NCBI GenBank assembly: GCA_035402805.1
Contig: DAONDY010000001.1
Coordinates: forward strand, 13,697 to 77,696
Source: Candidatus Woesebacteria bacterium
GTDB taxonomy: Bacteria > Patescibacteriota > Microgenomatia > UBA12405
Length of the DNA stretch: 64,000 bases
Direction of reading: 5' to 3'
Made by a program: the position numbers and the translations under genes. The notes beneath the pieces are model-generated. The model had not been told where the DNA came from. It made no database searches and was given only the letters and a program-made list of their open reading frames with translations. Below are positions 14,863 through 52,753 of the stretch, piece by piece (position 1 is the first letter of the stretch; each line of letters opens with the position of its first letter).

Positions 14863-14911
14863 TTTCTCCCTTTTATCAAGGGGAGATGTCCGAAGGACAG
14901 AGGGGTTTTGA
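14863..14911 (+). repeat. Copy A of a ~49-nt two-hairpin repeated element (UCUCCC-loop-GGGAGA; UGUCC-GAA-GGACA; GAGGGGUUUUG)
   Basis: Near-identical copies at 22217-22267, 47404-47452 and 52283-52330 (- strand). Hairpin 2 shows compensatory substitutions between copies. Confidence 0.7.
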
Positions 14912-14915
14912 CTTT

Positions 14916-17003
14916 ATGTTGTCAGATTTAACCTCTATTTTTTCTTGGTGGTTTTTGATTTTTTCTTTAGGTCTTTTAACTTTACCGGTAACATTTTTTT
15001 TATTTCAAAAATTTTGGGATAAAGGCTATATTTTTTCTAAAATTATTTGCATTATTATTGCTACTTATCTAATTTTTATTGGTGGAGTTTCTAAAATTTT
15101 GACTTTCACTAATTTAAATTTATTTATAGTTCTAGGCATAATCATTATATTGAATCTTTTATTCCTTAAACAAGGCAAAAATTTATCTTTATTTTTAAAA
15201 ACAATTAAAGAAAATTACCGGGTTTTTATTTTCCAAGAACTACTCTTTCTTTTAATTTTAATTAGTTGGTCTTTTGTTCGTGGTTTCGCTCCAGACATCG
15301 AGGGTTTGGAAAAATATATGGATTGGGGTTTTATAAATTCGGCCTTAAGATCAAAATTTTTACCACCACAAGATATGTGGTTTTCCGGTGAAGTAATAAA
15401 TTATTATTATTTTGGTCATTTAATTTTTGCCGTTTTAACTAAATTAAGTAATATTAGTTCAGCTATTACTTATAATTTATCCATCGCCACTGTTTGTGCT
15501 CTAACTTTTGCTTCCTCTTTTTCCCTTGCTTCTAATTTGGTTTACCTTTCTTTAAAAAAAATCAATTTTAAAAAAGTCGTCACTGCTGGTTTAATTTCCG
15601 CTCTTTTATTGACTTTTGGAGGCAATCTTCATTCGGTTTACAAGATTGCTAAAATAAATATCCAAGATAACGGCAAATTAGTTTTATCAAAGCAAGCTCT
15701 CAAAGAATCAGTTGGCAAATATTGGTACCCAGACGCCACTCGTTTTATTGGTCATGATCCCGATATTAAAGATAAAACCATTCATGAATTTCCAGTTTAT
15801 AGTTTTGTGGTTGCCGACCTTCATGGTCATATGAATGACATTCCTGTTGTTTTATTTTTTATGGCCTTTTTATTCGCTACCAGCTTCTCTTTATCAGGAT
15901 TAATAAATTATCTTGTCATTATTGTTTCCGGATTTATTTTATCAATTACCTATATGACCAATGCTTGGGATTTTGCCATTTATGGTCTTCTTTTTGCCAT
16001 CTTCACTTTCTTTATAAATCTTAAAAATGATAAAAAATCAGCTGTTAAAAAAACTTTAATTAACGGAATTTTAACAATTGCTGTTTGGTTTATTTTTAGT
16101 ATTCCTTTTTCTATGAATTTTGTTCCCATGACTAATGGAATAAAAATTTCTGATAGCCATAGCCCCTTTTATCAATTATTTATTTTATACGGTGGTTTTT
16201 GGCTGATCTGTTTACCATTTATTGTTTTGATATTTAAAAAATTTATTGTAAATTGTAAATTGAAAATTGAGAATTCAGATCTATTTGTTCTGGCCGTTAT
16301 TGTTACTGCCACTCTTTTGATAATTATTCCAGAATTAATTTATTTAAAAGATATTTATATTTATGAACATCGTCGGGCTAATACTATGTTTAAGTTGGTC
16401 TATCAATCATTTATTATGTATTCTTTAATTTCTGGTTATGTCTTTTATAAAACCAGATCTTTGTTAAAATCTAAAATTTTAAATAATTTATTTGGGTTTT
16501 TATTTACTGTAATTTTCTCAATTCATTTGATCTATCCCTATTTTGCCATTAAGTCTTTTTATGGTCTTAAAAATTATCAAGGGCTTTGGGGTTTGAATTA
16601 TTTAAAAGATTCCTATCCTGACAATTTAAAAGCTATTGATTGGATTAACAAAAATATTTCTGGTCAACCAATAATGCTGGAAGCAGTCGGTGATAGTTAT
16701 ACTACTTTTAATCAAATTTCTGTTGCCACCGGCCTCCCCACAGTCGAAGGGTGGATAGTCCACGAATGGCTTTGGCGCGGTGGCTATGACAAACCAAAAC
16801 AACGCCAAGATGATGTTCGTTCCATTTATGAAGATAAGGATATTAATAGATTGAAAGTTCTAATTAAAAAATATGATATTAAATATATCTTTATTGGCTC
16901 CAAAGAATACGAAAAATATCCCAACTTAAACGAAGATAATTTTATAAAAATTGGTGGAAAAATAATTTATCAGTCTGGTAAAACTAAGATTTACCAACTA
17001 TAG
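14916..17003 (+). CDS. DUF2298-like polytopic membrane protein (putative GT-C-type glycosyltransferase)
   Basis: The track ORF starts at 14886 inside the repeat element; ATG at 14916 is more plausible. >12 TM, conserved YYYFGHL segment typical of DUF2298. Confidence 0.5.
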   Translation: MLSDLTSIFSWWFLIFSLGLLTLPVTFFLFQKFWDKGYIFSKIICIIIATYLIFIGGVSKILTFTNLNLFIVLGIIIILNLLFLKQGKNLSLFLKTIKENYRVFIFQELLFLLILISWSFVRGFAPDIEGLEKYMDWGFINSALRSKFLPPQDMWFSGEVINYYYFGHLIFAVLTKLSNISSAITYNLSIATVCALTFASSFSLASNLVYLSLKKINFKKVVTAGLISALLLTFGGNLHSVYKIAKINIQDNGKLVLSKQALKESVGKYWYPDATRFIGHDPDIKDKTIHEFPVYSFVVADLHGHMNDIPVVLFFMAFLFATSFSLSGLINYLVIIVSGFILSITYMTNAWDFAIYGLLFAIFTFFINLKNDKKSAVKKTLINGILTIAVWFIFSIPFSMNFVPMTNGIKISDSHSPFYQLFILYGGFWLICLPFIVLIFKKFIVNCKLKIENSDLFVLAVIVTATLLIIIPELIYLKDIYIYEHRRANTMFKLVYQSFIMYSLISGYVFYKTRSLLKSKILNNLFGFLFTVIFSIHLIYPYFAIKSFYGLKNYQGLWGLNYLKDSYPDNLKAIDWINKNISGQPIMLEAVGDSYTTFNQISVATGLPTVEGWIVHEWLWRGGYDKPKQRQDDVRSIYEDKDINRLKVLIKKYDIKYIFIGSKEYEKYPNLNEDNFIKIGGKIIYQSGKTKIYQL

Positions 17004-17009
17004 TTAATT

Positions 17010-18905
17010 TTGTCCATGAAAGATATTTTAGAAGGTTTAAACCCACCTCAAAAAAAAGCCGTCACCCATATCGGTTCTCCCTTACTATTATTGGCCGGAG
17101 CCGGTTCTGGTAAAACTCGGGTTTTAACCCATCGAGTGGCTTATTTTATTCAACAAAAAATAGCTAAACCTTCAGAAATTTTGCTTTTAACCTTTACTAA
17201 TAAGGCCGCGGAAGAGATGAAAAATCGCACCACCAAGCTTTTGTCGGCAATCAATAGGTCGGAAAATAAAAGTTTTTTTGCTGGTACTTTTCACTCTTTC
17301 TGTTGCCGTGTTTTACGTGTTGACGGTCACCATATTGGTATTCCGCCCAAATTTGTTATTTACGATGCTAACGATCAAGAAAACTTAGTTAAAAATATTC
17401 TTCATGAATTAGGTCTAACCACCAAAGAATTTAAACCCTCAAGTGTTCTTTATTACATCGAAGCGGCTAAAAATTCTTTTCAAACTCCAAAAGAAATGAT
17501 CGCTCAAAGCCATGGTTTTTGGGAAGATTATGCCGCTAAAATTTATTCGCTTTATCAGAAGAAAATGTTTGAATTTCACGCTCTCGATTTTAATGATCTT
17601 CTTTTTAAAACTACTGAATTATTTTTAGAACATCCAGAAGTTCTGGATAAATATCAGGAAATATACAAATTTATTATGGTTGATGAGTATCAGGATACTA
17701 ACCAAATTCAATATCTTCTCACCAAACTTTTAGCCAAAAAATATAATCAAATTACCGTAGTTGGTGATGCTTCTCAAGCTATTTATGGTTGGCGTGGAGC
17801 CGATTACCGAAATCTGATAAGTTTTACTGCCGATTTTAAAAAAACCAAAGTTATTAATCTCGAGGAAAACTATCGATCTACTCAAATTATTCTTGACGCC
17901 GCCAATGCAATTATTTCTAAAAATAATTCTCATCCGGTTTTAAAATTATTTACCCAAAAAACATCAGAAGACAAAATAAAAGTTTTTGAAGCTGAATCTG
18001 AAGTTGCCGAGGCAGATTTTATTGCCCAAAAAATTAAATTTATCAACGATAATTTTAAAATTCCTCTTCGAGATATTGCCGTTCTTTATCGTATGAACGC
18101 CCAATCGCGTGTTTTGGAAGAAGCGTTTTTACGCCTTAGTATTCCTTATGTTCTGCTTGGTGGCACTCGTTTTTATGAACGTGCCGAAATTAAAGATATT
18201 TTATCTATGCTCCGTTTTGCTAGTAATAATGCTGATCATATTTCCGAAGAAAGAATTGATAAAGCTCTTGGTAAACGTAAAAAATCCCTTCTTTTAGAAC
18301 ATCTTAAAGATATGGATTTAGATAATTTAACCTCTCTTCAAATTTTAGAATCGCTGGTTGTTAATTCCGGTTATCTTGATAAATTTGATGCTAAAGATGA
18401 GGAGGATCAAAAAAGAATTGAAAATATTAAAGAATTAAAATCTGTCGCTGCTGCTCATCCTAGTCTAAGCGGCTTTTTGGAAAATGTTACCTTAGTCCAA
18501 CAAGAGTATTCACTTCAAGAAAAGAATAAAAAAAAGGAAAATCGAGACGGTGTTAAATTAATGACCCTTCATAGTGCTAAAGGTTTGGAATTTGAAGTAG
18601 TTTTTATAGTTGGTTTTGAAGAGGGAATTTTGCCTCATTCTCGTTGTTTGATTAATGAGTCTGAAATTGAAGAAGAGCGTCGTCTTTGTTACGTCGGTAT
18701 TACCCGTGCTAAAGATTATCTTTATATTTCTTATGCTACTCGTCGTTTATTTTTTGGCAAAAGCAGTTTAAATGAACCCAGTCGTTTTCTTGCTGATATT
18801 CCCTCAGAACTAGTCGAATTTGAAGAAAGCGAAGAACTTATTCGTGATTATCGTCATCCTAAAAAGAACGATGATGATCTCGTCTATGATCCTGATATTT
18901 ATTAA
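17010..18905 (+). CDS. pcrA: UvrD/PcrA/Rep-family ATP-dependent DNA helicase
   Basis: 631 aa. Walker A GAGSGKT, motif II VDEYQDTN, and TLHSAKGLEF, VGITRA later in the protein. Confidence 0.85.
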   Translation: MSMKDILEGLNPPQKKAVTHIGSPLLLLAGAGSGKTRVLTHRVAYFIQQKIAKPSEILLLTFTNKAAEEMKNRTTKLLSAINRSENKSFFAGTFHSFCCRVLRVDGHHIGIPPKFVIYDANDQENLVKNILHELGLTTKEFKPSSVLYYIEAAKNSFQTPKEMIAQSHGFWEDYAAKIYSLYQKKMFEFHALDFNDLLFKTTELFLEHPEVLDKYQEIYKFIMVDEYQDTNQIQYLLTKLLAKKYNQITVVGDASQAIYGWRGADYRNLISFTADFKKTKVINLEENYRSTQIILDAANAIISKNNSHPVLKLFTQKTSEDKIKVFEAESEVAEADFIAQKIKFINDNFKIPLRDIAVLYRMNAQSRVLEEAFLRLSIPYVLLGGTRFYERAEIKDILSMLRFASNNADHISEERIDKALGKRKKSLLLEHLKDMDLDNLTSLQILESLVVNSGYLDKFDAKDEEDQKRIENIKELKSVAAAHPSLSGFLENVTLVQQEYSLQEKNKKKENRDGVKLMTLHSAKGLEFEVVFIVGFEEGILPHSRCLINESEIEEERRLCYVGITRAKDYLYISYATRRLFFGKSSLNEPSRFLADIPSELVEFEESEELIRDYRHPKKNDDDLVYDPDIY

Positions 18906-18922
18906 CTTGTTAAAATATATCT

Positions 18923-19966
18923 ATGGTTAGCAGAATTCTTACTGAAAAAGATAGAGAAAAATACAATAAATTAATTATTCACCCAGTTCAAACGTGGGAG
19001 TGGGGAGATTTTCAAATTTCCCAAGGTCATAAAGTTTATCGTCTTGGTTGTTTTGATGACCAAGATAAAATGATTTCTGCTTATTCTGTAAGTTTTCATA
19101 AAATTCCTAAAACTAAGTTTTCTATTGGAACAATTCTTCGTGGTCCAGAAATTAATGACGAAATGGTAAATAAAATTAATGAAATTGCCCAAAAGGAAAA
19201 TGCCATTTTTGTTAAGTTTGAATCAAATTCTATCTATAAAAATTATGATTCTTTCAACAATGAAACCTTAGTTAATTCCAAACCACAATTTCTTAATTTA
19301 AAAAAATCGCCTAAAGTTGCCTTTTATCCTTTCACTTATTTAATTGATTTAACTAAAACCGAAGATCAACTTCTAGAATCGATGCATCCTAAAACTCGTT
19401 ACAACATTAGAGTTGCCAATCGTTATGGAGTTGAAGTTAGGGAACAGACCGACGATAAAGGTTTTGAAATTTATTTAAAATTGCTTTTTGACACCACTAA
19501 ACGTCAAGGTTTTTATCTTCATAATGAAAAATATCATCGTGATTTATGGAAGAAATTAAAATCCACTGGCATGATTCATATTATGTTGGCCTCTTACCAA
19601 AACCAAGTTTTATCTGCTTTTATGATTTTTAACATTAAGGATCGACTTTTTTATCCCTACGGTGCTTCTCTCGATACCAATCGTCAAGTCATGGCTCCGA
19701 CTCTTTTGATGTGGGAAGTAATTAAACTTGGTCAGAAATTAAAATGTAGCACTTTTGACATGTGGGGTTGTCTTGGTCCTCACGCTAAAGAAAATGAAAA
19801 TGGTTACGGTTTTCATAGATTTAAGCAAGGTTTTGGTGGTCAACTAGTCGAGTATGTTGGAACTTATGATTTAGTCACCAATCCGGTTTTGTACAAAATA
19901 TACAATTCTGTTGATAAAATTCGTTGGTATCTTCTTCGTCTCAAAGCTTCAATCTTTAAAAAATAA
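18923..19966 (+). CDS. FemAB-family peptidoglycan interpeptide-bridge aminoacyltransferase (FemX-like)
   Basis: 347 aa. The N-terminal IHPVQTWEWGDFQ matches the FemX/FemAB signature (QSWEWGEFK). Two GNAT-like halves. Confidence 0.65.
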   Translation: MVSRILTEKDREKYNKLIIHPVQTWEWGDFQISQGHKVYRLGCFDDQDKMISAYSVSFHKIPKTKFSIGTILRGPEINDEMVNKINEIAQKENAIFVKFESNSIYKNYDSFNNETLVNSKPQFLNLKKSPKVAFYPFTYLIDLTKTEDQLLESMHPKTRYNIRVANRYGVEVREQTDDKGFEIYLKLLFDTTKRQGFYLHNEKYHRDLWKKLKSTGMIHIMLASYQNQVLSAFMIFNIKDRLFYPYGASLDTNRQVMAPTLLMWEVIKLGQKLKCSTFDMWGCLGPHAKENENGYGFHRFKQGFGGQLVEYVGTYDLVTNPVLYKIYNSVDKIRWYLLRLKASIFKK

Positions 19967-19973
19967 AAAAGAA

Positions 19974-20009
19974 GGGTGTATATTACAAAAAGTTAAAAAA
20001 TATACACCC
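19974..20009. terminator. Bidirectional hairpin (10-bp perfect stem GGGTGTATAT / ATATACACCC, 16-nt loop) between convergent genes
   Basis: Inverted repeat at 19974-19983 and 20000-20009. Lies between the FemX-like gene (+) and 20017..20400 (-). Confidence 0.5.
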
Positions 20010-20016
20010 CTAAAGG

Positions 20017-20400
20017 TTAATTTGATATAACCTCACAAAGAGATTTTGAAAAATGAAATGTTGTTAAATTATCATTAGTCATAATATAACTCACTTCTAT
20101 TGCTTCGGCTCTATAACCAGATTTCTTTAGGGCTCCAACGAGAACTTCACGTTTAATGAAATAATATTTATCAAGACAATTCTCGTCACCTAAATTCTGA
20201 TCACAAAACCTAAAAAACGAACCAACTTCATCTGTTGTTTCTAATTTCAAACCAACTAAAAGGTTTCTAATTCCTTGGTCTAACAACTTGCCATTACCTA
20301 AATCGCTTGGTGCAACTTTAATTTCAATTAACATTTTATCCCATACTATCCTTTCAAAGTACTTTTTGTATCGAAGTATATCATAATAATAAAGCCTCAA
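20017..20400 (-). CDS. Hypothetical protein (orphan, opposite strand)
   Basis: 127-aa ORF with no recognisable motifs. Sits in a divergent/convergent intergenic pocket. Confidence 0.35.
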   Translation of the reverse strand: MRLYYYDILRYKKYFERIVWDKMLIEIKVAPSDLGNGKLLDQGIRNLLVGLKLETTDEVGSFFRFCDQNLGDENCLDKYYFIKREVLVGALKKSGYRAEAIEVSYIMTNDNLTTFHFSKSLCEVISN

Positions 20401-20427
20401 TTTTTAAAAAATAGGTTAAAATAGACT

Positions 20428-20727
20428 ATGTCCGATCCAAAAATTTCTATGGCCGACCTAGAGCATATTGCTAAATTAGCCAGAATTAATTTATCTGAAC
20501 CAGAAAAAAAAACCTTTCTACCTCAACTCGAATCTGTTTTGGAATATCTTGATGTTTTAAATCAAGCTAATGTTGAAAATATAGAACCAACCTATCGTGT
20601 TAATGATCAAAAAAATATTTTAAGAAAAGATGAAGTTGCCGAGTCTTTTAACCAAAAAACAGCACTTTCTAGCGCCCCAAAAACCCAAGATGGTTATTTT
20701 ACTGTTCCTCAAACTATTAAAAAATAA
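20428..20727 (+). CDS. gatC: Asp-tRNA(Asn)/Glu-tRNA(Gln) amidotransferase subunit C
   Basis: 99 aa. IAKLARINLSEPEKKTFLPQLESVLEYLDVLNQ is GatC-like. Directly precedes gatA. Confidence 0.8.
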   Translation: MSDPKISMADLEHIAKLARINLSEPEKKTFLPQLESVLEYLDVLNQANVENIEPTYRVNDQKNILRKDEVAESFNQKTALSSAPKTQDGYFTVPQTIKK

Positions 20728-20728
20728 T

Positions 20729-22192
20729 ATGGATTTAAAAAGTTTAACTATTTCTCAAATTCAAGAATTGCTGTTTTCTAAACAGATTTCTGCCGTCGAA
20801 ATTGTTAAATTTTATTTGCAAAGAATTAAAAAACTTGATCCTCAAATTAAATCTTTTATTACTGTAACAGAAAAAGAAGCCTTAAAACAGGCAGAAAATA
20901 TTGATAATAGAATTAAAAAAGGAGAGTCAGTCGGTAAATTAGCTGGTGCTGTTATGGCTGTTAAAGATATTTTCTTAACCAAAGATATTCAAACCACGGC
21001 CTCGTCTCAAGTTTTAAAAGACTATGTTCCCCAATATTCATCAACTATTTATCAAAAATTAATTAATGAAGATGCCATAGTTATTGGCAAAACCAATACT
21101 GATCCTTTTGCTTTTGGAGGGTCAACCGAAAATTCTGGCTTTTTTACAACTAAAAATCCTTGGAATCTTTCTAAAGTTCCCGGTGGTTCATCTGGTGGTT
21201 CTGCCGCCGCCGTAGCCGCTGATTTTTGCCAATTTGCTCTCGGTACCGATACTGGTGGTTCCATTCGTTTACCGGCCTCTCTGTGTAATATCAGCGGTCT
21301 AAAACCTACATATGGATTAAATTCTCGTTATGGCATCACTGCCATGGCTTCATCTTTTGATTGTCCTGGTGTTTTTGCCAAAAATGTTTCTGATTTAGCT
21401 CTAGTCACTGAAATCACCGCTGGTATTGATCCAAAAGATGCTACTACCATTAATAACCCAGTTCCAAATTACTCCCAAATTTTAGGTGATATTGATTTGA
21501 AAAAATTAAGAATTGGTATTCCTAAAGAATATTTTATTGATCCGATTAATATTGAAGTTAAAGAAAAAGTGATGAAAGCCGCTAAGCTTTTTGAAAGTAA
21601 TGGTGCCACTCTTGTTGATATTTCTTTACCTTCAACCAAACTCGGAATTGCTGTCTATTATATTTTGGTTCCTTCAGAAATCTCTGCCAACATGGCTCGT
21701 TATGATGGTATCCGTTTTGGTCGTAACACTAACAATAATCCAGATATTACTTCTTATTACATGAATACTCGTGGTCAATACATGGAGGCTGAAGTTAAAC
21801 GTCGAATTTTAATTGGAACTTATGCTCTATCTTCTGGTTATTATGATGCTTATTACACCAAGGCCTCAAAAGTTCGTACCCTTATAAAAAATGAGTTTAC
21901 CAATGCTCTTAAAAACGTCGACGTTATTTTAGCCCCAGTTTCTCCCACAGTCGCTTGGGATATTGGCGCCAAGGCCAACGATCCGCTTCAAATGTATTTA
22001 GTTGATGCTTTTACAGTTTGTATTAATGTCGCCGGAGTTCCATCAGTGGCTTTACCTTGTGGCTTTGATCAGACCAATTTACCTATCGGTTTTCAATTAA
22101 TTGGTAATTTTTTTGAAGAAGCTAAAATCCTTTCCATTGCTCACCAATATCAACAAATTACCGATTTTCACACCAATACTCCAAATTTATGA
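20729..22192 (+). CDS. gatA: Glu-tRNA(Gln) amidotransferase subunit A
   Basis: The track ORF begins at 20630 inside gatC. ATG at 20729, 1 nt after the gatC stop, gives MDLKSLTISQIQEL... Amidase signature GGSSGGSAAAVA present. Confidence 0.9.
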   Translation: MDLKSLTISQIQELLFSKQISAVEIVKFYLQRIKKLDPQIKSFITVTEKEALKQAENIDNRIKKGESVGKLAGAVMAVKDIFLTKDIQTTASSQVLKDYVPQYSSTIYQKLINEDAIVIGKTNTDPFAFGGSTENSGFFTTKNPWNLSKVPGGSSGGSAAAVAADFCQFALGTDTGGSIRLPASLCNISGLKPTYGLNSRYGITAMASSFDCPGVFAKNVSDLALVTEITAGIDPKDATTINNPVPNYSQILGDIDLKKLRIGIPKEYFIDPINIEVKEKVMKAAKLFESNGATLVDISLPSTKLGIAVYYILVPSEISANMARYDGIRFGRNTNNNPDITSYYMNTRGQYMEAEVKRRILIGTYALSSGYYDAYYTKASKVRTLIKNEFTNALKNVDVILAPVSPTVAWDIGAKANDPLQMYLVDAFTVCINVAGVPSVALPCGFDQTNLPIGFQLIGNFFEEAKILSIAHQYQQITDFHTNTPNL

Positions 22193-22216
22193 AAAATTTA
22201 AATTTTAAATTTTTGA

Positions 22217-22267
22217 CTTCTCCCTTTTTTAAGGGGAGATGTCGCTTTAGCGACAGAGAGGTTTTAA
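22217..22267 (+). repeat. Copy B of the two-hairpin repeated element (stem 2 = UGUCGC-UUUA-GCGACA)
   Basis: CTTCTCCCTTTTTTAAGGGGAGATGTCGCTTTAGCGACAGAGAGGTTTTAA, ending 2 nt before the gatB ATG. Confidence 0.7.
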
Positions 22268-22268
22268 T

Positions 22269-23717
22269 ATGAAAATAACCCCTATTATTGGACTTGAAGT
22301 TCATGTTGAATTAAAAACAAAATCAAAAATGTTTTGTTCTTGCTCAGCCGAACATTTTCATGTTGATCCCAACACTCACACTTGTCCTACCTGTCTCGGC
22401 CTTCCAGGGGCTCTTCCAGTGCCAAATAAAACTGCCTGTGAATGGTGTCTTAAATTAGGACTTGCTCTTGGTTGTACTCCCAACGAATCTAGTTTTTTTG
22501 AAAGAAAAAATTATTTTTATCCTGACTTGTCTAAAGGTTATCAGCTTACTCAATATGAAAAGCCTTTTGTTGTTAATGGCAAAATTAAGGTTGGTGATCA
22601 AGAAGTCAGAATTAATCGTGCTCATATGGAAGAGGATACTGGCAAATCTGTTCATATCAAAGACAATAGTCAAGAGTTAACTCTTATTGATTACAATCGT
22701 TGTGGTGTTCCATTGGTCGAGATTGTTTCCGAACCAGACATAACTTCTCCGGAAATGGCCAAAGATTATTTACTCAAAATGCAGCAAATTATCCGATATT
22801 TAGGCATTTCCGATGCAGACATTGAAAAAGGTAGTATGCGTTGTGAACCAACCGTTAATTTAAAAATAGAAAAAGATGGTCAAGAATTTTTTACTCCTTT
22901 AGTTGAAATTAAAAATGTTGCCTCTTTAACTGGTGTTCAAACAGCTATTGATTTCGAAATTAAACGTCAAACCGAAGCTTTTAATCAAACTGGCGAAGTC
23001 AAATCAAAAACCAATAAAAACACTTATGGTTGGGATGCTGATAAAAACCAAACTTTCTTACAACGCGAAAAAGAAGGTTCTTCAGATTATCGTTATTTTC
23101 CTGAACCAGATATTCCTCATATTGAATTTACCAAAGCCGAAATTGAAGCCATTAAGGCCACTATCCCTGAATTGCCTGATCAAAAAATAGAAAGATATAA
23201 AAAAGATTTTGCCTTAAACGATTATGATGCTAATCTTTTGGCTTCTGACTTTTCTTTTTCACAGGCTTTTGAAAAGGCTATTGGTCAAAATCCAGAATCA
23301 GCTTTCGTCAAATTTACTGCCAATCTATTTTTAGGTGCCATTAAAACTTATTTAAATGAATCTCAAAAAGATCTCGATATTAATAAAATTAATTCGAAAT
23401 ATTTTAAAAACCTTTTTGATTCAGTTTCTAAATCTGAAATCTCAGCTACTGTTGCCAAACAAGTTATCGTCGAAAGTTATTATATCGATCAAGACCCAGT
23501 TGAAATTGCTAAAAATTCTGGATTAATTCAAGTTTCCGATTCTAGCGAAATTGCCAAAATTGCCAAAGAGGTGATTAATACTAATCCAAAAGCAGTTGAT
23601 GATTATAAAAAGAACCCAGCCTCAATTGGCTTTTTAATTGGTCAATTAATGAAAGCTTCTAAAGGCTCCGCCAACCCTAAACTAGCCAAAGAAATTTTAG
23701 AAAAATTGTTAAATTAA
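22269..23717 (+). CDS. gatB: Glu-tRNA(Gln) amidotransferase subunit B
   Basis: 482 aa. N-terminal IGLEVHVELKTKSKMFCSCS, typical GatB. Confidence 0.9.
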   Translation: MKITPIIGLEVHVELKTKSKMFCSCSAEHFHVDPNTHTCPTCLGLPGALPVPNKTACEWCLKLGLALGCTPNESSFFERKNYFYPDLSKGYQLTQYEKPFVVNGKIKVGDQEVRINRAHMEEDTGKSVHIKDNSQELTLIDYNRCGVPLVEIVSEPDITSPEMAKDYLLKMQQIIRYLGISDADIEKGSMRCEPTVNLKIEKDGQEFFTPLVEIKNVASLTGVQTAIDFEIKRQTEAFNQTGEVKSKTNKNTYGWDADKNQTFLQREKEGSSDYRYFPEPDIPHIEFTKAEIEAIKATIPELPDQKIERYKKDFALNDYDANLLASDFSFSQAFEKAIGQNPESAFVKFTANLFLGAIKTYLNESQKDLDINKINSKYFKNLFDSVSKSEISATVAKQVIVESYYIDQDPVEIAKNSGLIQVSDSSEIAKIAKEVINTNPKAVDDYKKNPASIGFLIGQLMKASKGSANPKLAKEILEKLLN

Positions 23718-23747
23718 TTTCGGGAAAATCTGTTAGTATTAATTAAC

Positions 23748-23897
23748 ATGACCAAGAAAAAATCCACCCAAAAAAAATCGTCAGTTAAAAGAACCCCTGT
23801 CAAAAAAATAAAATGTTGGAGTGAAGATCCAAATTTTTTGGTGTTTTTACTTGCTGCCTCCATTGTTGCTTTTTCTTTTCTATTTCGTTTTCTTTAA
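23748..23897 (+). CDS. Small basic tail-anchored protein (49 aa, hypothetical)
   Basis: MTKKKSTQKKSSVKRTPVKKIKCWSEDPNFLVFLLAASIVAFSFLFRFL. Below the track size threshold. Lysine-rich N-terminus plus a C-terminal TM. Confidence 0.2.
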   Translation: MTKKKSTQKKSSVKRTPVKKIKCWSEDPNFLVFLLAASIVAFSFLFRFL

Positions 23898-23921
23898 TTC
23901 AGTCCTTGGTAAAATAGCCTA

Positions 23922-42356: not shown

Positions 42357-42370
42357 AATCTAAAACTGTT

Positions 42371-42637
42371 CTACAAATATTTGTTCCATTTATTATCAGT
42401 AATAATACTGTTATTTTTTTTGCAAAAATTTTTTTTAGCTTCTTCCTCAAGATTACTAATTTCTTTATTAATAACCAAACCCATATTTCGTCCATGATCT
42501 TTCTTTTCTTCCTCGCTTAATTCAGGAGGTGGATCAGGAAGTTCATTCACAGCCATATTAATTTCTTTAGCCATCTCCATATAACATTTCTTATTTCCAG
42601 GAACTGTACAAATTTCACAATTTCTTTTTTCACTCAT
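42371..42637 (-). CDS. Hypothetical small Cys-containing acidic protein (orphan, opposite strand)
   Basis: 88 aa. CEIC...KC near the N-terminus. No other motifs. Confidence 0.3.
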   Translation of the reverse strand: MSEKRNCEICTVPGNKKCYMEMAKEINMAVNELPDPPPELSEEEKKDHGRNMGLVINKEISNLEEEAKKNFCKKNNSIITDNKWNKYL

Positions 42638-42683
42638 AAATATATTTTATCCTAATTTTCGATTTTTTAAGTTATAATAAGCC

Positions 42684-44105: not shown

Positions 44106-44121
44106 AACGGTATACTAATTC

Positions 44122-46242: not shown

Positions 46243-46248
46243 TTTATT

Positions 46249-46854
46249 ATGCTTCGAACTTCTTCTCTTCTTAAAAACACCCGTATTGATAAAGAATATG
46301 ACCTGTCCGATATTTCCAAGAAATTAAAAATACCCATCAAATATTTAATTGCTATCGAAAATGAAGAGGTTAAATGTTTTCCTCAAGAGCCTTATTGTTC
46401 TTTGATTATTAAAGATTATGCCGATTATTTAGGTCTAAATGGTCAAGAAATGTTATCTTTTTTTCGTCGTGATTTTGAACAAAGTAAAAAAAATAAATCC
46501 TTTAAAAAAGAAAATCTATCTTTTACCCCTCAATTTACTTTCGCTCTTTTAATTGGATTAATTTTAGTCAGTTTTATTTTTTATCTCACTTCAGAATATT
46601 TAAAATTTAATCGTCCTCCAAAATTAAAAGTAAATTGGCCAGAAAATATTACTGGTACCAGTTTTGATCTTTCTGGTCTTACCGATCCTGATTCCACCAT
46701 TCGCATTAATCAAGACCTTATTATTGTTGATGATAAAGGAAATTTTCAAAAGAAAATTCAAGCCAGTTCTGGTGGTGAATTAAAAATTATCGTTGAATCT
46801 AAATCGCCTAGTGGTAAAACCACTATTGAAGAAAAAGTTTTAAAAACTAATTAA
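46249..46854 (+). CDS. RodZ-like cytoskeleton/morphogenesis protein (HTH + single TM + C-terminal domain)
   Basis: 201 aa. The N-terminal XRE-like helix LSDISKKLKIPIKYLIAIENEE...YCSLIIKDYADYLGL is RodZ-like. TM helix FTFALLIGLILVSFIFYL. Confidence 0.45.
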   Translation: MLRTSSLLKNTRIDKEYDLSDISKKLKIPIKYLIAIENEEVKCFPQEPYCSLIIKDYADYLGLNGQEMLSFFRRDFEQSKKNKSFKKENLSFTPQFTFALLIGLILVSFIFYLTSEYLKFNRPPKLKVNWPENITGTSFDLSGLTDPDSTIRINQDLIIVDDKGNFQKKIQASSGGELKIIVESKSPSGKTTIEEKVLKTN

Positions 46855-46872
46855 TTAGTTTATACTGAATAT

Positions 46873-47133
46873 ATGGATATCACTCAAATTGTCATTATCA
46901 TCAGTTTAGTTGCTATTACCGCCATTATTATTATCAGCGGTGTATTTTTCATTAAATTATTAAAAGACTTAACCGTTACCATCAAAAAAACCAACTTAAT
47001 TCTTGATGATACTCATTTAATTACCGATTCTGTGGCTAAACCAGTTTCTTCTTTTTCAGAGGTTCTTATGGGTTTAAAAAATGGTTTTTCTTTTTTTAAC
47101 AATTTATCGAAAAACAAAAAGAAAGATGAATAA
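46873..47133 (+). CDS. Small single-TM protein (hypothetical)
   Basis: 86 aa. N-terminal TM helix IVIIISLVAITAIIIISGVFFI. Confidence 0.35.
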   Translation: MDITQIVIIISLVAITAIIIISGVFFIKLLKDLTVTIKKTNLILDDTHLITDSVAKPVSSFSEVLMGLKNGFSFFNNLSKNKKKDE

Positions 47134-47398
47134 GGAAGAGGAAAAAGTAAGCTCTGGTTTTATTTTTGGTCTAACTTTAGGTGCTGCGATTGGAGCCATT
47201 TCCGCCATTTTAGTCAATAAAAACAGTAAAACCGAGGTTATTGAAAATTTTGAATCCAAGGTTAAAGATTTTTTCCAAGATTTAATTAGTGACGTTAAAA
47301 TTTCCGCCAAAGGCGGATCCTCCTCTGGCGGAAAAGAAGTTGAATATATTACTCCCAAAAAACCTGCTCCCAAGATGTTTGTTAAACCGAAAAGATAA
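47126..47398 (+). CDS. YtxH-like small membrane-associated protein
   Basis: Track ORF trimmed to MNKEEEKVSSGFIFGLTLGAAIGAISAILVNKNSKTE..., matching the YtxH GxxxGxxxGAxxALLxAPKSGKE pattern. Confidence 0.4.
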   Translation: MNKEEEKVSSGFIFGLTLGAAIGAISAILVNKNSKTEVIENFESKVKDFFQDLISDVKISAKGGSSSGGKEVEYITPKKPAPKMFVKPKR

Positions 47399-47403
47399 GA
47401 TAA

Positions 47404-47452
47404 TTTCTCCCTTTTATCAAGGGGAGATGTCCGAAGGACAGAGGGGTTTTGA
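47404..47452 (+). repeat. Copy C of the two-hairpin repeated element, identical in its structured core to copy A
   Basis: TTTCTCCCTTTTATCAAGGGGAGATGTCCGAAGGACAGAGGGGTTTTGA. Lies between the YtxH-like gene and alaS. Confidence 0.7.
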
Positions 47453-47470
47453 ACTGATATAATCAACTTT

Positions 47471-49324
47471 ATGAATGTCAGAGAAATCAGAAAAAAATTT
47501 ATCGATTTTTATAAAGCCCGTGGTCATATTGAAATTCCTTCTGTTTCTTTAGTTCCAGAAAACGATCCCTCTACTCTTTTTACTTCCGCTGGAATGCAAC
47601 CAATGATGCTCTATCTTTTAGGAGAAAAGCATCCACTTGGAAAAAGAATTGTCGATTCTCAAAAATGTTTTCGTTCTCAAGATATTGAAGAAGTTGGCGA
47701 TAATCGTCACACCACCTTTTTTGAAATGTTAGGTAATTGGTCTTTAGGGGATTATTTTAAAAAAGAACAACTCGAATTTATTTTTACTTTTCTTACTGAT
47801 AAAAACGAAGGAATAGGCCTCGATCCAAATCGAATTCATGTTTCTGTTTTTAAAGGTGATGAAAATCAAAAATTAATGCCCGACACTGAAACCATAGACC
47901 TTTGGATTAAGCTTTTTGGAAAATATAACATAAAAGCGGGAATTGGTAATCACATTTTTACCTATCCATCCAACAAAAATTGGTGGTCTCGTTCCGGTTC
48001 TCCTGATAAAATGCCTGCAGGTGAACCTGGTGGTCCAGACAGTGAAATTTTTTATGATTTTGGTCCAGAACTAAAACTACATGAAAACTCAAAATGGAAA
48101 GATCAACCCTGCCATATAAATTGTGATTGTGGTCGTTTCTTAGAAATCGGCAATTCTGTGTTTATGCAATACCTTAAACAATCAGATGGTAGTTTAAAAG
48201 ATTTACCTCAAAAAAACATTGACTTTGGAGGTGGTTTAACCAGACTAGAAGCCGTTTCTAAAAATAACCCCGACATGTTTAATATTTCCACCCTTAGCCC
48301 TTTAATTAAGGAAATAGAAAAAATTTCCCAAAAATCGTATTCAGATTTAGACAATAAAGCTCCAATGAGAATTATTGCCGATCATATTACTGCCTCGGTT
48401 TTTTTAATTAATGATGGCGTTGTTCCTAGTAATAAAGCTCAAGGTTATGTGCTTCGTCGTTTAATTCGTCGGGCTATTCGTCAAGGAAAAATAATCAACA
48501 TCGAAAATGATTTGATTGTAAAAATAGCTAAATTAGTTATTAATGACGAAAATTATACCGATAAATACCCAGAACTTATTCAAAACCAAAATAATATTTT
48601 AGACATTTTAACCACTGAAGAAAATAAATTTAGAAAAACTTTAAACAATGGTCTTCGTGAAATTAATAAACTAATTACTAGAAATAAAACTGTTTCCGGT
48701 AAAGAAGCTTTTACTCTTTATGAAACTTTCGGTTTTCCAGTTGAAATGATTCAAGAGGAATTAGCTAAAAATAATTTAACTCTAAATATAGATGATTTTG
48801 ATCAGGCCAAACTTGATCATCAAAAACTTTCTCAGACTTTATCTGCCGGCAAGTTTAAATCAGGTTTAGCCGATAATTCGGAAATTATTACTAAATTTCA
48901 TACTGTCGCCCACTTGCTTCACGCCGCTTTAAGAAAAGTTCTTGGCAGTCATGTTCAACAAGCTGGTTCAAATATTACCTCGGAAAGAATTCGTTTTGAT
49001 TTTACTAACCCCGAAAAATTAACTGAAGATCAGTTAAAACAAGTGACAGATTTGGTTAATGATCAAATTAAATTAAAATTACCGGTTACTGTTGAAAATA
49101 TGCCCTTTACTGAGGCGACCAAAAAAGGTGCTTTAGCTTTTTTTGGTAACAAATATCCAGAAAATGTTACCGTTTATACCATCGGTTCAAAGGAAAATTA
49201 TTTTTCAAAAGAAGTTTGCACTGGTCCTCATGTTGCCAATTTATCTGTACTTGGTCATTTTGAAATCTTTAAAGAAGAATCCGCTGGGAGTGGTAAACGC
49301 CGTATCTATGCAGTCCTAAAATAG
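47471..49324 (+). CDS. alaS: Alanyl-tRNA synthetase, short form (catalytic, tRNA-binding and editing domains; no C-Ala domain)
   Basis: 617 aa. N-terminal FIDFYKARGHIEIPSVSLVP...FTSAGMQ. Editing-domain HxxxH (HTVAHLLH) and CxxxH (CTGPH). ORF ends ~170 aa before the usual C-terminus. Confidence 0.85.
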   Translation: MNVREIRKKFIDFYKARGHIEIPSVSLVPENDPSTLFTSAGMQPMMLYLLGEKHPLGKRIVDSQKCFRSQDIEEVGDNRHTTFFEMLGNWSLGDYFKKEQLEFIFTFLTDKNEGIGLDPNRIHVSVFKGDENQKLMPDTETIDLWIKLFGKYNIKAGIGNHIFTYPSNKNWWSRSGSPDKMPAGEPGGPDSEIFYDFGPELKLHENSKWKDQPCHINCDCGRFLEIGNSVFMQYLKQSDGSLKDLPQKNIDFGGGLTRLEAVSKNNPDMFNISTLSPLIKEIEKISQKSYSDLDNKAPMRIIADHITASVFLINDGVVPSNKAQGYVLRRLIRRAIRQGKIINIENDLIVKIAKLVINDENYTDKYPELIQNQNNILDILTTEENKFRKTLNNGLREINKLITRNKTVSGKEAFTLYETFGFPVEMIQEELAKNNLTLNIDDFDQAKLDHQKLSQTLSAGKFKSGLADNSEIITKFHTVAHLLHAALRKVLGSHVQQAGSNITSERIRFDFTNPEKLTEDQLKQVTDLVNDQIKLKLPVTVENMPFTEATKKGALAFFGNKYPENVTVYTIGSKENYFSKEVCTGPHVANLSVLGHFEIFKEESAGSGKRRIYAVLK

Positions 49325-49358
49325 GCAGAATATATAAAAATATAGTATTCTATTATGT

Positions 49359-51566
49359 ATGGGTATTAATAGTTTTTGGCTGTTTTATATTGAAGCCGAC
49401 AGTATTTTAGTTTCTCTCATTAGTTGGGGAAATGGCCGCTATTATGTTGCTTCAATCGGTCCTAGAGTTGAATGTGACATCAATAATAAAGAATCACTTT
49501 TAAAAGCGGCTGATGAGTCCCTTTCCAGTGCTGCCGCCAGCGCCGATATTCCAGAAGATCAAGAACCGATGTTTGCTGGGCTAGTTATCCCTTCGTCTTG
49601 GGTGGGTCCAGATGGCAAAATTACTAAAGAAAAATCAGATATTATTTTGCCTCTTCTTAAAGAGCTTGACCTTAAACCATCAGGTTTTATGTCCAACGAT
49701 GAAGCCATTATTGAAGAATCAAACAAACCCGATGATTTTCCCGCTAGTTTCATTAATCTCTATTTAGAATCTAATGCCTTTGAATTATCTTTAATTTATC
49801 TTGGCAAAGTAAAAAAAAGAATCAGAAAAGTTTTTGACACCGAATTTAATGCCCAACTAGTCGAAGATTCTCTATTAGAATTAAATTCCGATTCAACCTT
49901 ACCTCCTCAAATTTATGTTTATGGTAAAGCTGATGATTTAGTTATCGAAAATCTTAAAAATTTTCCCTGGGTTGGTAAAAAAAATGTTGAAACTTTTCTC
50001 CATTTTCCCGAAATTAAACTCTATCAAGACCATGATTTAATAAATATTTTTTTTAAGGCCATCACTTCTCAAATGATTGGTGGGGGAAATCCTAATCATC
50101 AACCTCTTCCTCAGGCTGAAGATCAAGAACCAGAAGAGTCATTAGATTCAGAAGAATCACCAGAGCCAGAAGAGGTAAAAACAGTTGAAAATTTGGAAGA
50201 AGTTGAAGAGATTGAAGAAACGCCAGAAGTGTCAGAACCTTCAGAAGAAAATTTAGAAGAAGTTTCTTTTAGCGATTTAGGTTTTGCCAAAGAAGAAGCT
50301 GTTGTTGTTCCTCCTCGAGAGATTTTCAATATTGAACCTATCAATACTGAGCCTGTCGAAGCACCTAAACCAGAGAAAAAACCAATTTCTTTTAATTTTC
50401 CTAAAATAAAATTTAAGCTTCCCAAATTTAAAAATAATTTTTTGCTTTTTATTTTTCCCATCGCTTTAGTCATTCTTTTTCTACCCATTCTATTTTCCAA
50501 AGCCAATATCGTTCTTTTTGTTACTCCATACGAATTTAATAAAACAGTTAACGTTACTCTTGATTCTAATGCCACCAGTCTCACTTCCTCAGTCATTCCC
50601 GTCGACAAAAAAACAGTTACTATAAATTCTTCTGTTACTATCAAAACCACTGGCCAAAAAGTTATCGGTAATAAAGCCACTGGTGAAATTACTATTTTTA
50701 ATAAAGTTGAAAAAGTTCAAAGTATCCCTAAAGGTTCAATTTTAATTGATTCTAAAAATCAAAAATTTGAATTGATGAGTGCTGTCCAGGTCGCTTCTAG
50801 CAGCTCTAATTTTAATGCTAATCCGCCAACCATGGTTCTCGGTCAATTGAAAACTGTAATTTCCGCCAGTGATATTGGGCCTGAATACAATATTCCCAAA
50901 GAGACCACTTTACATTTTAAAGATTTTCCCGAAACTTCAATTATTGTTAAAAGCAATACTGATTTTACTGGGGGAACTAAAGAACAAATTGGTGCCGTCA
51001 GCCAACAGGATAAAGTTGCCGCTGAGGCTCAGTTAGCTTTGAAATTAAAAGAAGAAGCCGATCAAAAAATAAGCCAGGAATTTAATACTTCAAATAATGC
51101 CATTAAAGAGACTATTCAAACCAAAAAAGGTAAAACTGAACTCAATCGTGAAGTAGGGGAGGAAACTGATGAACTAACTGCCAGTGCCGATTCGACTGTC
51201 AGTGTTTTTGTTTTTAAACCCGAGTTAAAAAATCAAATACTAGCTCAATTATTATCATCAGAAACTGGTTATTCTGATTCTGATATAAATCCCGACTCTT
51301 TCGTTTTCACCTTAAAAATCGATAAATTAGATTCCAACAAGGCCACTGGTAGTTTAAATATTAAAGGTTCTTCTCTGCCAAAAATTAACGTTGAATTGCT
51401 TAAGAAAAATATTTCCGCTAAAACTACCAAAAAAGCTCAAGAAATTATTAAAAAAACTATCAGCCGTGTCTATGATTATAATTTAAAAATTACTTTTAAA
51501 ATTTTTAATATTTTACCTTTAAACACAAAGAATATTTTTATTGATGTTAAAAACGAATCACCGTGA
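49359..51566 (+). CDS. Membrane protein with an N-terminal FtsA/PilM-like actin-fold segment, acidic linker, one TM and a large extracytoplasmic domain
   Basis: 735 aa. N-terminal FWLFYIEADSILVSLISWGNGRYYVASIG resembles the FtsA/PilM first beta-hairpin (hLDIGssKIavlV), with a degenerate phosphate loop. Glu-rich linker, TM ~residues 352-372. Stop overlaps the sortase start (ATGA). Confidence 0.45.
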   Translation: MGINSFWLFYIEADSILVSLISWGNGRYYVASIGPRVECDINNKESLLKAADESLSSAAASADIPEDQEPMFAGLVIPSSWVGPDGKITKEKSDIILPLLKELDLKPSGFMSNDEAIIEESNKPDDFPASFINLYLESNAFELSLIYLGKVKKRIRKVFDTEFNAQLVEDSLLELNSDSTLPPQIYVYGKADDLVIENLKNFPWVGKKNVETFLHFPEIKLYQDHDLINIFFKAITSQMIGGGNPNHQPLPQAEDQEPEESLDSEESPEPEEVKTVENLEEVEEIEETPEVSEPSEENLEEVSFSDLGFAKEEAVVVPPREIFNIEPINTEPVEAPKPEKKPISFNFPKIKFKLPKFKNNFLLFIFPIALVILFLPILFSKANIVLFVTPYEFNKTVNVTLDSNATSLTSSVIPVDKKTVTINSSVTIKTTGQKVIGNKATGEITIFNKVEKVQSIPKGSILIDSKNQKFELMSAVQVASSSSNFNANPPTMVLGQLKTVISASDIGPEYNIPKETTLHFKDFPETSIIVKSNTDFTGGTKEQIGAVSQQDKVAAEAQLALKLKEEADQKISQEFNTSNNAIKETIQTKKGKTELNREVGEETDELTASADSTVSVFVFKPELKNQILAQLLSSETGYSDSDINPDSFVFTLKIDKLDSNKATGSLNIKGSSLPKINVELLKKNISAKTTKKAQEIIKKTISRVYDYNLKITFKIFNILPLNTKNIFIDVKNESP

Positions 51567-52282
51567 GCTATCTTTATCTTAAAAAAAATACCCCCTCCCC
51601 AAAAAATAAATCGACCGCCAAAAAGAAAAAAATGGCTACTATCTTTCTGGTCATTGGTTTAGTCTTTTTCTTTTCAGCTCTTTTCCCCATTCTTAAGTTT
51701 CAACTCCAGTCTTCGCTTAATTTCAGTCAAATGATTAACCCTCTTTCTTTAAAATCTTACAGCGGTTCTCAAAATATTTTAGGCACAGTTACTACCGATT
51801 ACACTCAAATGGCTAATTGGTTTGTTGCCGATTCTAGCGAAAATAATCAGCTTTTTTCCAATAACAATAACTTAACTTATAAAATTTCTATTCCTAAATT
51901 AAAAATTAAAGATGCCGTTGTGACTATTGGTAGTATGGATTTAAAAAAAAGTTTAATTCAATATCCCCAAACGGCTCTTCCTGGTCAACTTGGAAATACT
52001 GTCGTTTTCGGACACTCAGTTTTGCCTCAATTTTTTAATCCAAACAATTATCTAACCATTTTTTCTACCCTCTATAAGTTAAAACAGGGAGATGAAATAT
52101 TTATTGAATACGATAGCGTCCAATATAAATATATTATTAATGAAATGTTCGAAGTTAAACCCACCGACCTTTCGGTTCTTGAACAACGTTTTGATCAAAA
52201 AAATTTGACTCTTATAACTTGCAGTCCCCCAGGCACTTATCTTCGCCGTCTTATCATTAAAGCCAGTTTGAGCATTAATTAA
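51563..52282 (+). CDS. Sortase-family transpeptidase
   Basis: 239 aa. N-terminal TM. Catalytic His region (VVFGHS) and the TLITC active-site Cys motif (NLTLITCSPPG), followed by a conserved Arg (YLRR). Confidence 0.7.
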   Translation: MSYLYLKKNTPSPKNKSTAKKKKMATIFLVIGLVFFFSALFPILKFQLQSSLNFSQMINPLSLKSYSGSQNILGTVTTDYTQMANWFVADSSENNQLFSNNNNLTYKISIPKLKIKDAVVTIGSMDLKKSLIQYPQTALPGQLGNTVVFGHSVLPQFFNPNNYLTIFSTLYKLKQGDEIFIEYDSVQYKYIINEMFEVKPTDLSVLEQRFDQKNLTLITCSPPGTYLRRLIIKASLSIN

Positions 52283-52330
52283 AATCCTCTCTGTCACTTT
52301 GTGACATCTCCCCTTAACAAAGGGAGAAGT
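52283..52330 (-). repeat. Copy D of the two-hairpin repeated element (minus orientation; stem 2 = UGUCAC-AAA-GUGACA)
   Basis: Reverse complement reads ACTTCTCCCTTTGTTAAGGGGAGATGTCACAAAGTGACAGAGAGGATTTT. Overlaps the 3' end of the DUF559 gene, between convergent sortase (+) and DUF559 (-). Confidence 0.65.
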
Positions 52331-52683
52331 CTTTCTAAAACTTTATCAAAGTTATTCAATATTTCATCGTTAGTAAATCTGATGGTTTTAATATTTACTG
52401 CCTTTAAATATTGATCTCTTAACAAATCATAGTTTTTCTTTTTATTATGTGAACCACCATCAATTTCAATACATAACGATAATTCACGACAATAAAAATC
52501 TAAAATAAATCTAAACATTGGTTTCTGTCTTAAAAATCTATATTTACTTTTTCTTAAATATCTCCACATTACATATTCTGCATCTGTTGGATTCTTTCTG
52601 TTATTTATAGTTAATACTTTTAATTCTTCTAAATACCTAATATGACCCTTTTGTGTTACATAATTATCATCTGTAAATTTCAT
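52294..52683 (-). CDS. DUF559-family endonuclease-domain protein (Vsr-like fold)
   Basis: 129 aa. EYVMWRYLR...FRFLRQKPMFRFILDFYCRELSLCIEIDGGSH...IKTIRFTNDEI matches the DUF559 pattern (ErxLWxxLR...FRRQ...DFyC...ElDGxxH...RF.N.ev). Confidence 0.7.
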   Translation of the reverse strand: MKFTDDNYVTQKGHIRYLEELKVLTINNRKNPTDAEYVMWRYLRKSKYRFLRQKPMFRFILDFYCRELSLCIEIDGGSHNKKKNYDLLRDQYLKAVNIKTIRFTNDEILNNFDKVLERLLPLLRGDVTK

Positions 52684-52704
52684 TACAAATAAGTATATAA
52701 AAGA

Positions 52705-52753
52705 TTTCCTCCCTTGATAAGGGAGGATACCGGTTTACCCGGAGGAAGGATTT
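52705..52753 (+). repeat. Diverged copy E of the two-hairpin element (CCUCCC-UUGAUAA-GGGAGG; ACCGG-UUUA-CCCGG; GGAGGAAGGAUUU)
   Basis: Same architecture as A-D with different stem sequences. Lies in the divergent DUF559 / ruvX region. Confidence 0.45.

Follow-up and report, generated by a model that had tools for sequence, protein, structure and literature searches.

Repeats and genes in the window

We analyzed 64,000 nucleotides of contig DAONDY010000001.1 (assembly GCA_035402805.1, positions 13,697 to 77,696 of the forward strand), here called the window, from a tightly packed, 33% GC genome of the candidate phyla radiation (CPR), a Candidatus Shapirobacteria-like metagenome-assembled genome (MAG). 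Along the window lie five copies, A to E, of a 49-nt repeat, the last two of which bracket a gene (52294..52683, minus strand) coding for a DUF559 protein of 129 aa, a Vsr-like nuclease of the PD-(D/E)XK type. The tight pairing of DUF559 genes with repeats of this kind, found across phyla, is the new and apparently unreported result of this work, while the triplex grammar followed by the repeats was already known.

Three domains follow one another in each copy, namely a pyrimidine arm (X), its purine complement (X') and, at the 3' end, a tail of purines in which X' is mirrored. The two arms are joined by a loop of 3 to 4 nt and form a 9-bp X:X' hairpin in all five copies, and the second loop, of 12 to 15 nt, forms a hairpin of its own (hairpin 2) between X' and the tail. 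Copy A (14863..14911, plus strand) has X at 14865-14873 (TCTCCCTTT), X' at 14878-14886 (AAGGGGAGA), hairpin 2 at 14887-14899 and the mirrored tail at 14899-14907 (AGAGGGGTT), with a predicted fold of -16.8 kcal/mol. Copy C (47404..47452, plus strand; X 47406-47414, X' 47419-47427, hairpin 2 47428-47440, tail 47440-47448) is identical to it across the whole 49-nt element. Copy B (22217..22265) is also on the plus strand, with X at 22219-22227, X' at 22231-22239, hairpin 2 at 22240-22255 and the tail at 22255-22263 (AGAGAGGTT), and copy D lies on the minus strand (52283..52331; X 52327-52319, X' 52315-52307, hairpin 2 52306-52292, tail 52292-52284). The diverged copy E (52705..52753, plus strand) comprises X at 52707-52715 (TCCTCCCTT), X' at 52719-52727 (AAGGGAGGA), hairpin 2 at 52730-52742 and the tail at 52743-52751 (AGGAAGGAT).

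A preliminary description of this DNA had listed four strong copies and a diverged fifth with this architecture, and all five were recovered by a covariance model seeded with relatives from other genomes, at 41.3 bits for A and C, 47.6 for B, 46.5 for D and 13.1 for E (E value about 0.05). In the seed alignment (A2) the last three rows had been edited and one extra C-G pair added to keep it gapless; this alignment served the search model only and did not enter the covariation counts. Over the whole 64 kb the model gave no further full-length match at E<1. A strict sequence pattern had no match in 100 shuffles, and a generic scan of both strands for a pyrimidine arm, a complementary purine arm and a mirrored purine tail returned exactly A to E, and none in 20 shuffles.

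Copies A, B and C are singlets located 6 to 25 nt past a same-strand gene and 4 to 19 nt ahead of the next start codon, while D and E make up an inverted pair around the DUF559 gene. The "AUG" between the two hairpins is not a start codon. The DUF2298 open reading frame (ORF), as listed, begins at the ATG inside copy A (GGGAGATGTCC, 14886-14915), and comparison with L205, the closest relative, places the true start at ATG 14916 (MLSDL...).

Mirrored tails and the class II triplex grammar

The tail follows X' by a code of G*G-C, A*A-T and T*A-T triplets, in which an A of X' is kept as A or replaced by T. AAGGGGAGA of copies A and C becomes AGAGGGGTT in the tail, and AAGGGAGGA of copy E becomes AGGAAGGAT, with X, X' and the tail of E all altered coherently relative to A to D. 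This mirror order allows the tail to fit into the major groove of the X:X' hairpin, antiparallel to X', and the triplets allowed in an antiparallel purine-motif triplex amount to nine of nine in A and C and eight of nine in B, D and E. In AT-rich genomes a T-run comes after the tail, as the mirror image of those A's of X' that lie closest to the loop.

The same rule was seen beyond the window. At the 3' ends of DUF559 genes, tails had on average 0.95 mismatches to their own mirrored X', against 1.59 in the direct register and 1.77 to the mirrors of other elements (p about 1e-3 and 1e-4). When G positions alone were used to align the tails, internal A's of X' faced an A or a T in 270 of 311 cases (87%) in the mirror register and in 121 of 215 (56%) in the direct one. 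A perfect mirrored tail accompanied 42 of 80 informative X' types, e.g., AAGGGGGGAGAGGG with tail GGGAGTGGGGGGAT, compared with 12 of 80 after shuffling. Hairpin 2 is missing in some relatives (e.g., L201, L173, and L143); as X' and the tail are joined there by 2 to 3 nt, we regard hairpin 2 as an expanded connector.

The BoxC/PIT/TMECO repeats share this order of pyrimidine arm, loop, purine arm, loop and reverse-Hoogsteen mirror arm, and their literature also includes the work of Bachellier in the 1990s and that of Hoyne and Maher in 2000. They are likewise intergenic and multi-copy, often in inverted pairs of two arm subtypes, their copy number varies among close relatives with rearranged loci, and an E. 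coli TMECO adjoins the DUF559 gene ycjD. The class II intrastrand triplex was defined by Holder 2015 (PMC4666352) as a pyrimidine arm, a purine arm and a 3' reverse-Hoogsteen arm, and in that study the E. coli lineage of names runs from BoxC through PIT elements to TMECO, with the consensus CCCTCNCCC N3-6 GGGNGAGGG N3 GGGNGAGGG. The study counted 3610 copies across 262 genomes, described inverted pairs built from two subtypes, demonstrated triplex formation in vitro by circular dichroism and nuclear magnetic resonance, and tied TMECO loci to local genome instability or rearrangement, with no function, mobile-element link or protein partner reported (PMC4666352).

The window arms (TCTCCC/GGGAGA, within TCTCCCTTT/AAGGGGAGA or TCCTCCCTT/AAGGGAGGA) differ from those of TMECO (CCCTCNCCC/GGGNGAGGG), which makes them a separate sequence family with the same grammar, with hosts that include CPR, Bacteroidota, Chloroflexota, Clostridia and Actinomycetota, unlike BoxC/PIT/TMECO. 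Their loop 2, of 12 to 15 nt with its own covarying hairpin, contrasts with the 3 nt of TMECO; since it is longer than the short loops of the class II motif, we filed the window element as a variant of that motif. The published finder (ITxF) limits loops to 1 to 6 nt (PMC4666352; 0 to 10 nt in Hoyne et al.) and for this reason would miss the hairpin-2 variant. Judged from their letters, A to E are most likely DNA-level dispersed repeats of the class II intrastrand-triplex type, in a hairpin-bearing form.

Pairing of DUF559 genes with the repeats

The DUF559 product matched Pfam PF04480 (E value 1e-26, 93.3 bits versus a cut-off of 20.6) and the unpublished structural-genomics entry PDB 3HRL (E value 5e-16). 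Among the catalytic-type residues, E73, D75 and H79 were invariant and D62 nearly so. The AlphaFold model (pLDDT 86) was closest to 3HRL, followed by the catalytic domain of the homing endonuclease I-Bth0305I and then by PvuRts1I, AbaSI and Vsr. The superposition on the catalytic domain of I-Bth0305I (Vsr-like EDxHD, PDB 3R3P) had a TM-score of 0.80 normalized to the target. There is a resemblance to free-standing homing endonuclease genes as well in the presence or absence of DUF559 at a conserved site and in the 90%-identical DUF559 gene found elsewhere, between a hypothetical gene and ligA and among five copies. The likeness is one of fold and polymorphism. DUF559 lacks an intron or intein context, and its putative target would be a dispersed structured repeat and not a unique gene sequence. 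Next to a DUF559 unit, a 22-bit model hit falls inside the ligA coding region (L123/L125, about 10808-10846 and 4808-4846, respectively), either by chance or, perhaps, through an RPE-type insertion in frame.

That two copies flank the DUF559 gene had been remarked in the preliminary description and turned out to be the key observation. Copy D is sense to the gene and overlaps its stop codon, coding for the C terminus ...LPLLRGDVTK*, and copy E, which is antisense to it, occupies the space between DUF559 and the divergent ruvX gene, 21 nt ahead of the DUF559 start. The hairpin-2 subtype of E (ACCGGTTTACCCGG) also adjoins DUF559 in L121, L125 and L126. Most of the best 120 DUF559 homologues (49 to 99% identity) end in peptides that translate the element in differing reading frames (e.g., LLP[LF]LRGDV, LPLIKGRCHEVTEGF, SPPCQGRG, and VSLVKGRNGEAERD), so the conservation is at the DNA level. 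Across 80 metagenome DUF559 loci, 49 of 62 model hits were within 200 nt of the gene, a zone that makes up 16.5% of the bases, with 23 sense and 5 antisense copies downstream and 16 antisense and 5 sense copies upstream. As a separate observation, the element occurs three times in tandem, every 105 nt, from the DUF559 stop codon onward in one locus (L166:2025-2298).

The pairing extends far outside CPR. Mesorhizobium DUF559 genes are flanked by inverted copies, and Dokdonia copies adjoin the gene. In E. coli K-12 the ycjD ORF ends ...SPSP* inside CCCTCTCCC-TGA, with a full TMECO about 150 nt downstream, so that in CPR and E. coli alike the DUF559 ORF ends within a sense copy and its stop is inside the X arm. 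Between ycjD and this TMECO, roughly 60 nt of the ycjD 3' coding end are repeated in tandem as an imperfect copy with a degenerate motif (L217; NC_000913.3, about 1351180-1351420). According to a 2026 study, ycjD is located at the fabI-sapF site, which in other phylogroups is taken up by the eefRABCD operon, and some sequence types have a 12-nt insertion at its 3' end (PMC12817139).

We also inspected ten further DUF559 loci on plasmids or chromids, representing five additional lineages (Synechocystis, Picosynechococcus, Pseudanabaena, Azospirillum, two Deinococcus species, Sphingomonas, Neisseria, Photobacterium and S. meliloti). With a strict scan, class II motifs appeared within 300 nt of the gene in 8 of the 10, and by eye in all 10, the strict count being 22 near motifs in about 9.5 kb versus 2 isolated ones across about 53 kb of more distant flank. 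In Deinococcus an antisense motif precedes the gene and a sense motif follows 2 to 8 nt past the stop, and the unit of D. psychrotolerans lies within the paa operon. Overall, motifs flank or overlap DUF559 genes in CPR, Hyphomicrobiales, Bacteroidota, Cyanobacteriota, Deinococcota, and Beta- and Gammaproteobacteria. Two of the loci hold long motif arrays directly after DUF559, one of 16 class II motifs spaced by about 145 nt in Photobacterium sp. GJ3 (L226:3352-4933) and one with a 281-nt period in Neisseria gonorrhoeae (L225:3472-4168). DUF559 products have been found enriched among genes with flanking inverted repeats, as predicted inversion targets (PMC9881135), and in the literature on DUF559 and ycjD we found no paper linking either to BoxC, PIT, TM or another repeat family.

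Spread of the family

An exact-pattern scan of species-representative genomes gave at least 120 loci; among the matches listed most were from Hyphomicrobiales, with others in Rhodobacteraceae, Clostridia, Chloroflexota, Bacteroidota, Actinomycetota and Shapirobacteria. Outside CPR the copies usually come as inverted doublets 30 to 110 nt apart, both head-to-head and tail-to-tail, and such doublets were present in all phyla sampled. In Clostridia and Bifidobacterium they often mix the arm subtypes TCTCCC..GGGAGA and GCTCCC..GGGAGC. This picture of a dispersed repeat, with singlets plus inverted doublets, fits the REP/MITE-like option that had been among those first considered (MITE, miniature inverted-repeat transposable element), and the element is not confined to a single duplicated segment.

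Insertion into gene junctions

Copies A, B and C each came with a lineage-specific insertion of about 55 to 75 nt, at junctions that are tight or overlapping in relatives. In L206, L207, L208 and L209 nothing separates gatA from gatB, the two genes sharing an ATGA overlap. In the window the corresponding junction (22189..22275, plus strand) reads ATGAAAA (22189-22195), a 73-nt insert with copy B (22196-22268) and ATGAAAA again (22269-22275), and L205 carries a diverged element at the same place. The gap between the PAP2 and DUF2298 genes measures 74 nt with copy A in the window and 2 nt without an element in L205. Copy C is missing upstream of alaS in the syntenic L215 and L216, and the sortase-ruvX gap of L215 has one solo element and no DUF559. 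Throughout 75 kb of syntenic DNA of relatives, the model detected just two copies.

We looked for remnants of the DUF559 3' end in the solo copies, and only the AT-rich 5' part of the copy B insert (22196-22216) was weakly similar (p about 0.02 in a local alignment of AT-rich sequence), which microhomology or a leftover of the gene might explain; we do not claim the latter. At the alaS junction, hairpin 2 of copy C provides a -35-like AGGACA that is followed, at exactly 17 nt, by the native extended -10 of alaS (TGATATAAT; 47435-47463), and this -10 box is kept in L215 and L216, which have no copy C.

The 7-bp ATGAAAA duplication around copy B, together with doublets that resemble terminal inverted repeats and ISRm16 adjoining the S. 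meliloti locus, would suit a MITE mobilized in trans by a conventional insertion sequence transposase, with DUF559 as a passenger. We consider this explanation very improbable. No recurrently linked transposase was seen in the loci examined, the doublets are head-to-head as well as tail-to-tail, and the other insertion sites show no clear duplication. The one at B also keeps the gatA stop and gatB start and partly matches the DUF559 3' coding end (GATGAAAT), and for these reasons it may be microhomology.

The sortase-ruvX junction, occupied by D-DUF559-E in the window, holds unrelated cargo in L216 (L216:11863-13642), namely two small minus-strand ORFs, an HTH gene and an HD-domain gene, and is an insertion hot spot. 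This cargo, the rearrangements linked to TMECO loci (Holder 2015) and the alternation of ycjD with eefRABCD (PMC12817139) are what one would expect if the repeats, of host or selfish origin and independent of the nuclease, were fragile or recombination-prone sites where DUF559, like other cargo, lands and persists. Such an account remains unlikely in our view. It leaves aside that one and the same small gene family accompanies the motifs in at least seven phyla, each lineage with its own motif sequence, that the ORF stop falls inside the X arm in CPR and in E. coli, and that the CPR units have a fixed architecture, antisense upstream and sense downstream.

Stem covariation

Both stems vary in a compensatory way, as had been proposed from the first copies. 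In 161 pattern matches, the interior of stem 2 took 17 complementary forms; the count of Watson-Crick pairs was 260 and that of G-U pairs zero. For both stems together, 98.7% of cells paired in an alignment of 131 model hits, which is model-fitted, and 12 of the 15 pairs changed on both sides, a result reached by none of 500 shuffles, and slid controls paired in only 52 to 77%; in helix 1, 98.9% of cells paired. The preliminary description took this covariation as the signature of a selected RNA structure, a step that is not supported, as a DNA hairpin predicts the same signature.

Proposed mechanism

We consider it probable that a triplex-forming DNA repeat and a homing-endonuclease-like DUF559 nuclease constitute a pair comparable to that of REP (repetitive extragenic palindromic) repeats and RAYT, and we infer that the nuclease acts on the repeat. 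The repeats would be the cis partner of the DUF559 genes, whose products are Vsr-like, homing-endonuclease-like PD-(D/E)XK nucleases. Copies A, B and C would then be orphan, non-autonomous copies in tight gene junctions, and D-DUF559-E would be the gene-bearing unit, at a site where a relative holds a solo element only. In CPR the unit consists of a sense copy at the DUF559 3' end and an inverted copy just ahead of the gene. The X:X' hairpin, the covarying connector hairpin and the purine/T tail, the latter folded back as a triplex, may be what the DUF559 nuclease recognizes or cuts, either in single-stranded or in supercoil-extruded DNA. Repair or copying after the cut would spread the gene into elements, or spread the elements themselves, by analogy with REP/RAYT and homing, and the pair would propagate as a unit, selfish or domesticated. 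Neighbor genes would gain Shine-Dalgarno-like and -35-like sequences from the elements as a side effect.

The analogy is supported by several traits. REP/BIME and REPIN-RAYT systems also have short palindromic intergenic repeats in singlets and inverted doublets (PMC3116915, PMC3337134, PMC3733652), in both a single gene, whose product cuts DNA, has inverted copies on its two sides and is vastly outnumbered by orphan copies, and recognition as folded single-stranded DNA is plausible for both. In contrast, the gene flanked here codes for a PD-(D/E)XK protein (DUF559, PF04480) and not for an HUH Y1 transposase, the GTAG or CGTC tag of REP is absent from A to E and from the 161 homologues, and the window family has an extra mirrored third domain and a core conserved across phyla, unlike the species-specific REPs.

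The BoxC/PIT/TMECO repeats have been studied since the 1990s, with thousands of copies in hundreds of genomes and triplexes formed in vitro, yet with no assigned function, origin or partner, and the DUF559 nucleases, for their part, occur very widely and have a solved structure but no known role. Their association gives an orphan repeat family a candidate protein partner and turns two open questions into one testable hypothesis, which can be addressed in a model organism with ycjD and the 23 TMECO copies of MG1655. As a bolder extension, which we put forward tentatively and with less confidence than the explanation above, DUF559 proteins including YcjD might be the cognate nucleases of BoxC/PIT/TM repeats, an ancient, cross-phylum, REP/RAYT-like system that would recognize triple-helical DNA, drive its spread and cause the instability of these loci. 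If true, this would be a natural system in which a nuclease, mobile or domesticated, specifically recognizes a DNA triplex. The association would also explain the presence of DUF559 genes among predicted targets of programmed inversion and odd annotated C termini such as LLPLLRGDV, SPPCQGRG and SPSP. In any case, triplex-type repeats are now extended to reduced CPR genomes, where they are precisely inserted between essential genes, donating ribosome-binding-like and promoter-like sequence.

Several observations weigh against the proposed pairing. Copies B, D and E have one A*G-C mismatch each, the first tail base doubles as the closing-pair base of hairpin 2, and the triplex itself has been seen in vitro for TMECO only. 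The orientation of the flanking copies relative to the gene differs between CPR and rhizobia, the database scans favor loci that fit the search pattern or resemble the CPR protein, and the association of DUF559 with the motifs could instead reflect the fragile, insertion-prone nature of these sites, as discussed above. Furthermore, all five window copies are sense to local transcription, A to D lying after a same-strand gene. When the hairpins of each strand were folded alone, the sense strand had more G-U pairs than the antisense (37 versus 20) and was the more stable in 69 versus 23 cases, a difference that is no more than suggestive, as many of the copies are related.

The strand bias and the sense orientation, along with the strong covariation, are what a structured RNA motif in the transcript of the upstream gene would display, whether as a terminator, an mRNA 3'-end stabilizer or a re-initiation module, and the tail does provide a GAGG 8 to 10 nt ahead of the gatB and DUF2298 starts. 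We nonetheless find this reading quite improbable. Inverted doublets are the rule elsewhere, and A, B and C are recent insertions in junctions that work without them in relatives. The relatives also have solo copies antisense to both neighbors (L011 and two in L128). Watson-Crick pairing in an RNA leaves the mirrored tail unexplained; according to Holder 2015 (PMC4666352), RNA does not form purine-motif triplexes, and neither promoter nor terminator activity was seen for PIT elements. Rfam 15 gave no match at the gathering score in the window or in 15 loci, and no family was matched even at E<=1 for 52250-52800. A rule of sense orientation for solo copies was discarded; it holds for five of five in the window, and among the clearly intergenic copies of relatives six were sense to both neighbors and three antisense to both.

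The terminator role suggested at first did not stand either. Like Rho-independent terminators, the elements place a GC-containing hairpin downstream of genes and, in this AT-rich genome, a T-run. The purine tail, however, parts the T-run from hairpin 2, the T-run mirrors the A's of X', and GC-rich homologues have no T-run following the tail. Consensus scans of 14000-24000 and 46000-54000 called none of A to D on the sense strand and detected only hairpin 1 of E, on the minus strand. As for the tail sequence GAGRGGWUUU, described initially as Shine-Dalgarno-like, its GAGG is indeed Shine-Dalgarno-like at the two starts named above, but the sequence as a whole is a mirror of the purine arm and not a Shine-Dalgarno plus U-tract, and the GAGG in front of gatB and DUF2298 looks like a by-product of insertion.

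Other observations

Two genes next to the repeats gave discordant affiliations. The window GatB (22269-23717) is 89% identical to that of the Shapirobacteria MAG GCA_028704885.1, while the window AlaRS (47471-49324) is 100% identical to that of GCA_964497985.1, with the nearest non-identical sequence at 81% and GCA_028704885.1 at 61%. This discordance could reflect gene replacement or taxonomic mislabeling, one of the NCBI names being Woesebacteria. Finally, L215 carries downstream of yceG a Gp49/HTH_3 pair similar to HigB/HigA toxin-antitoxin systems (L215:13424-14092), which is not in the syntenic region of the window.

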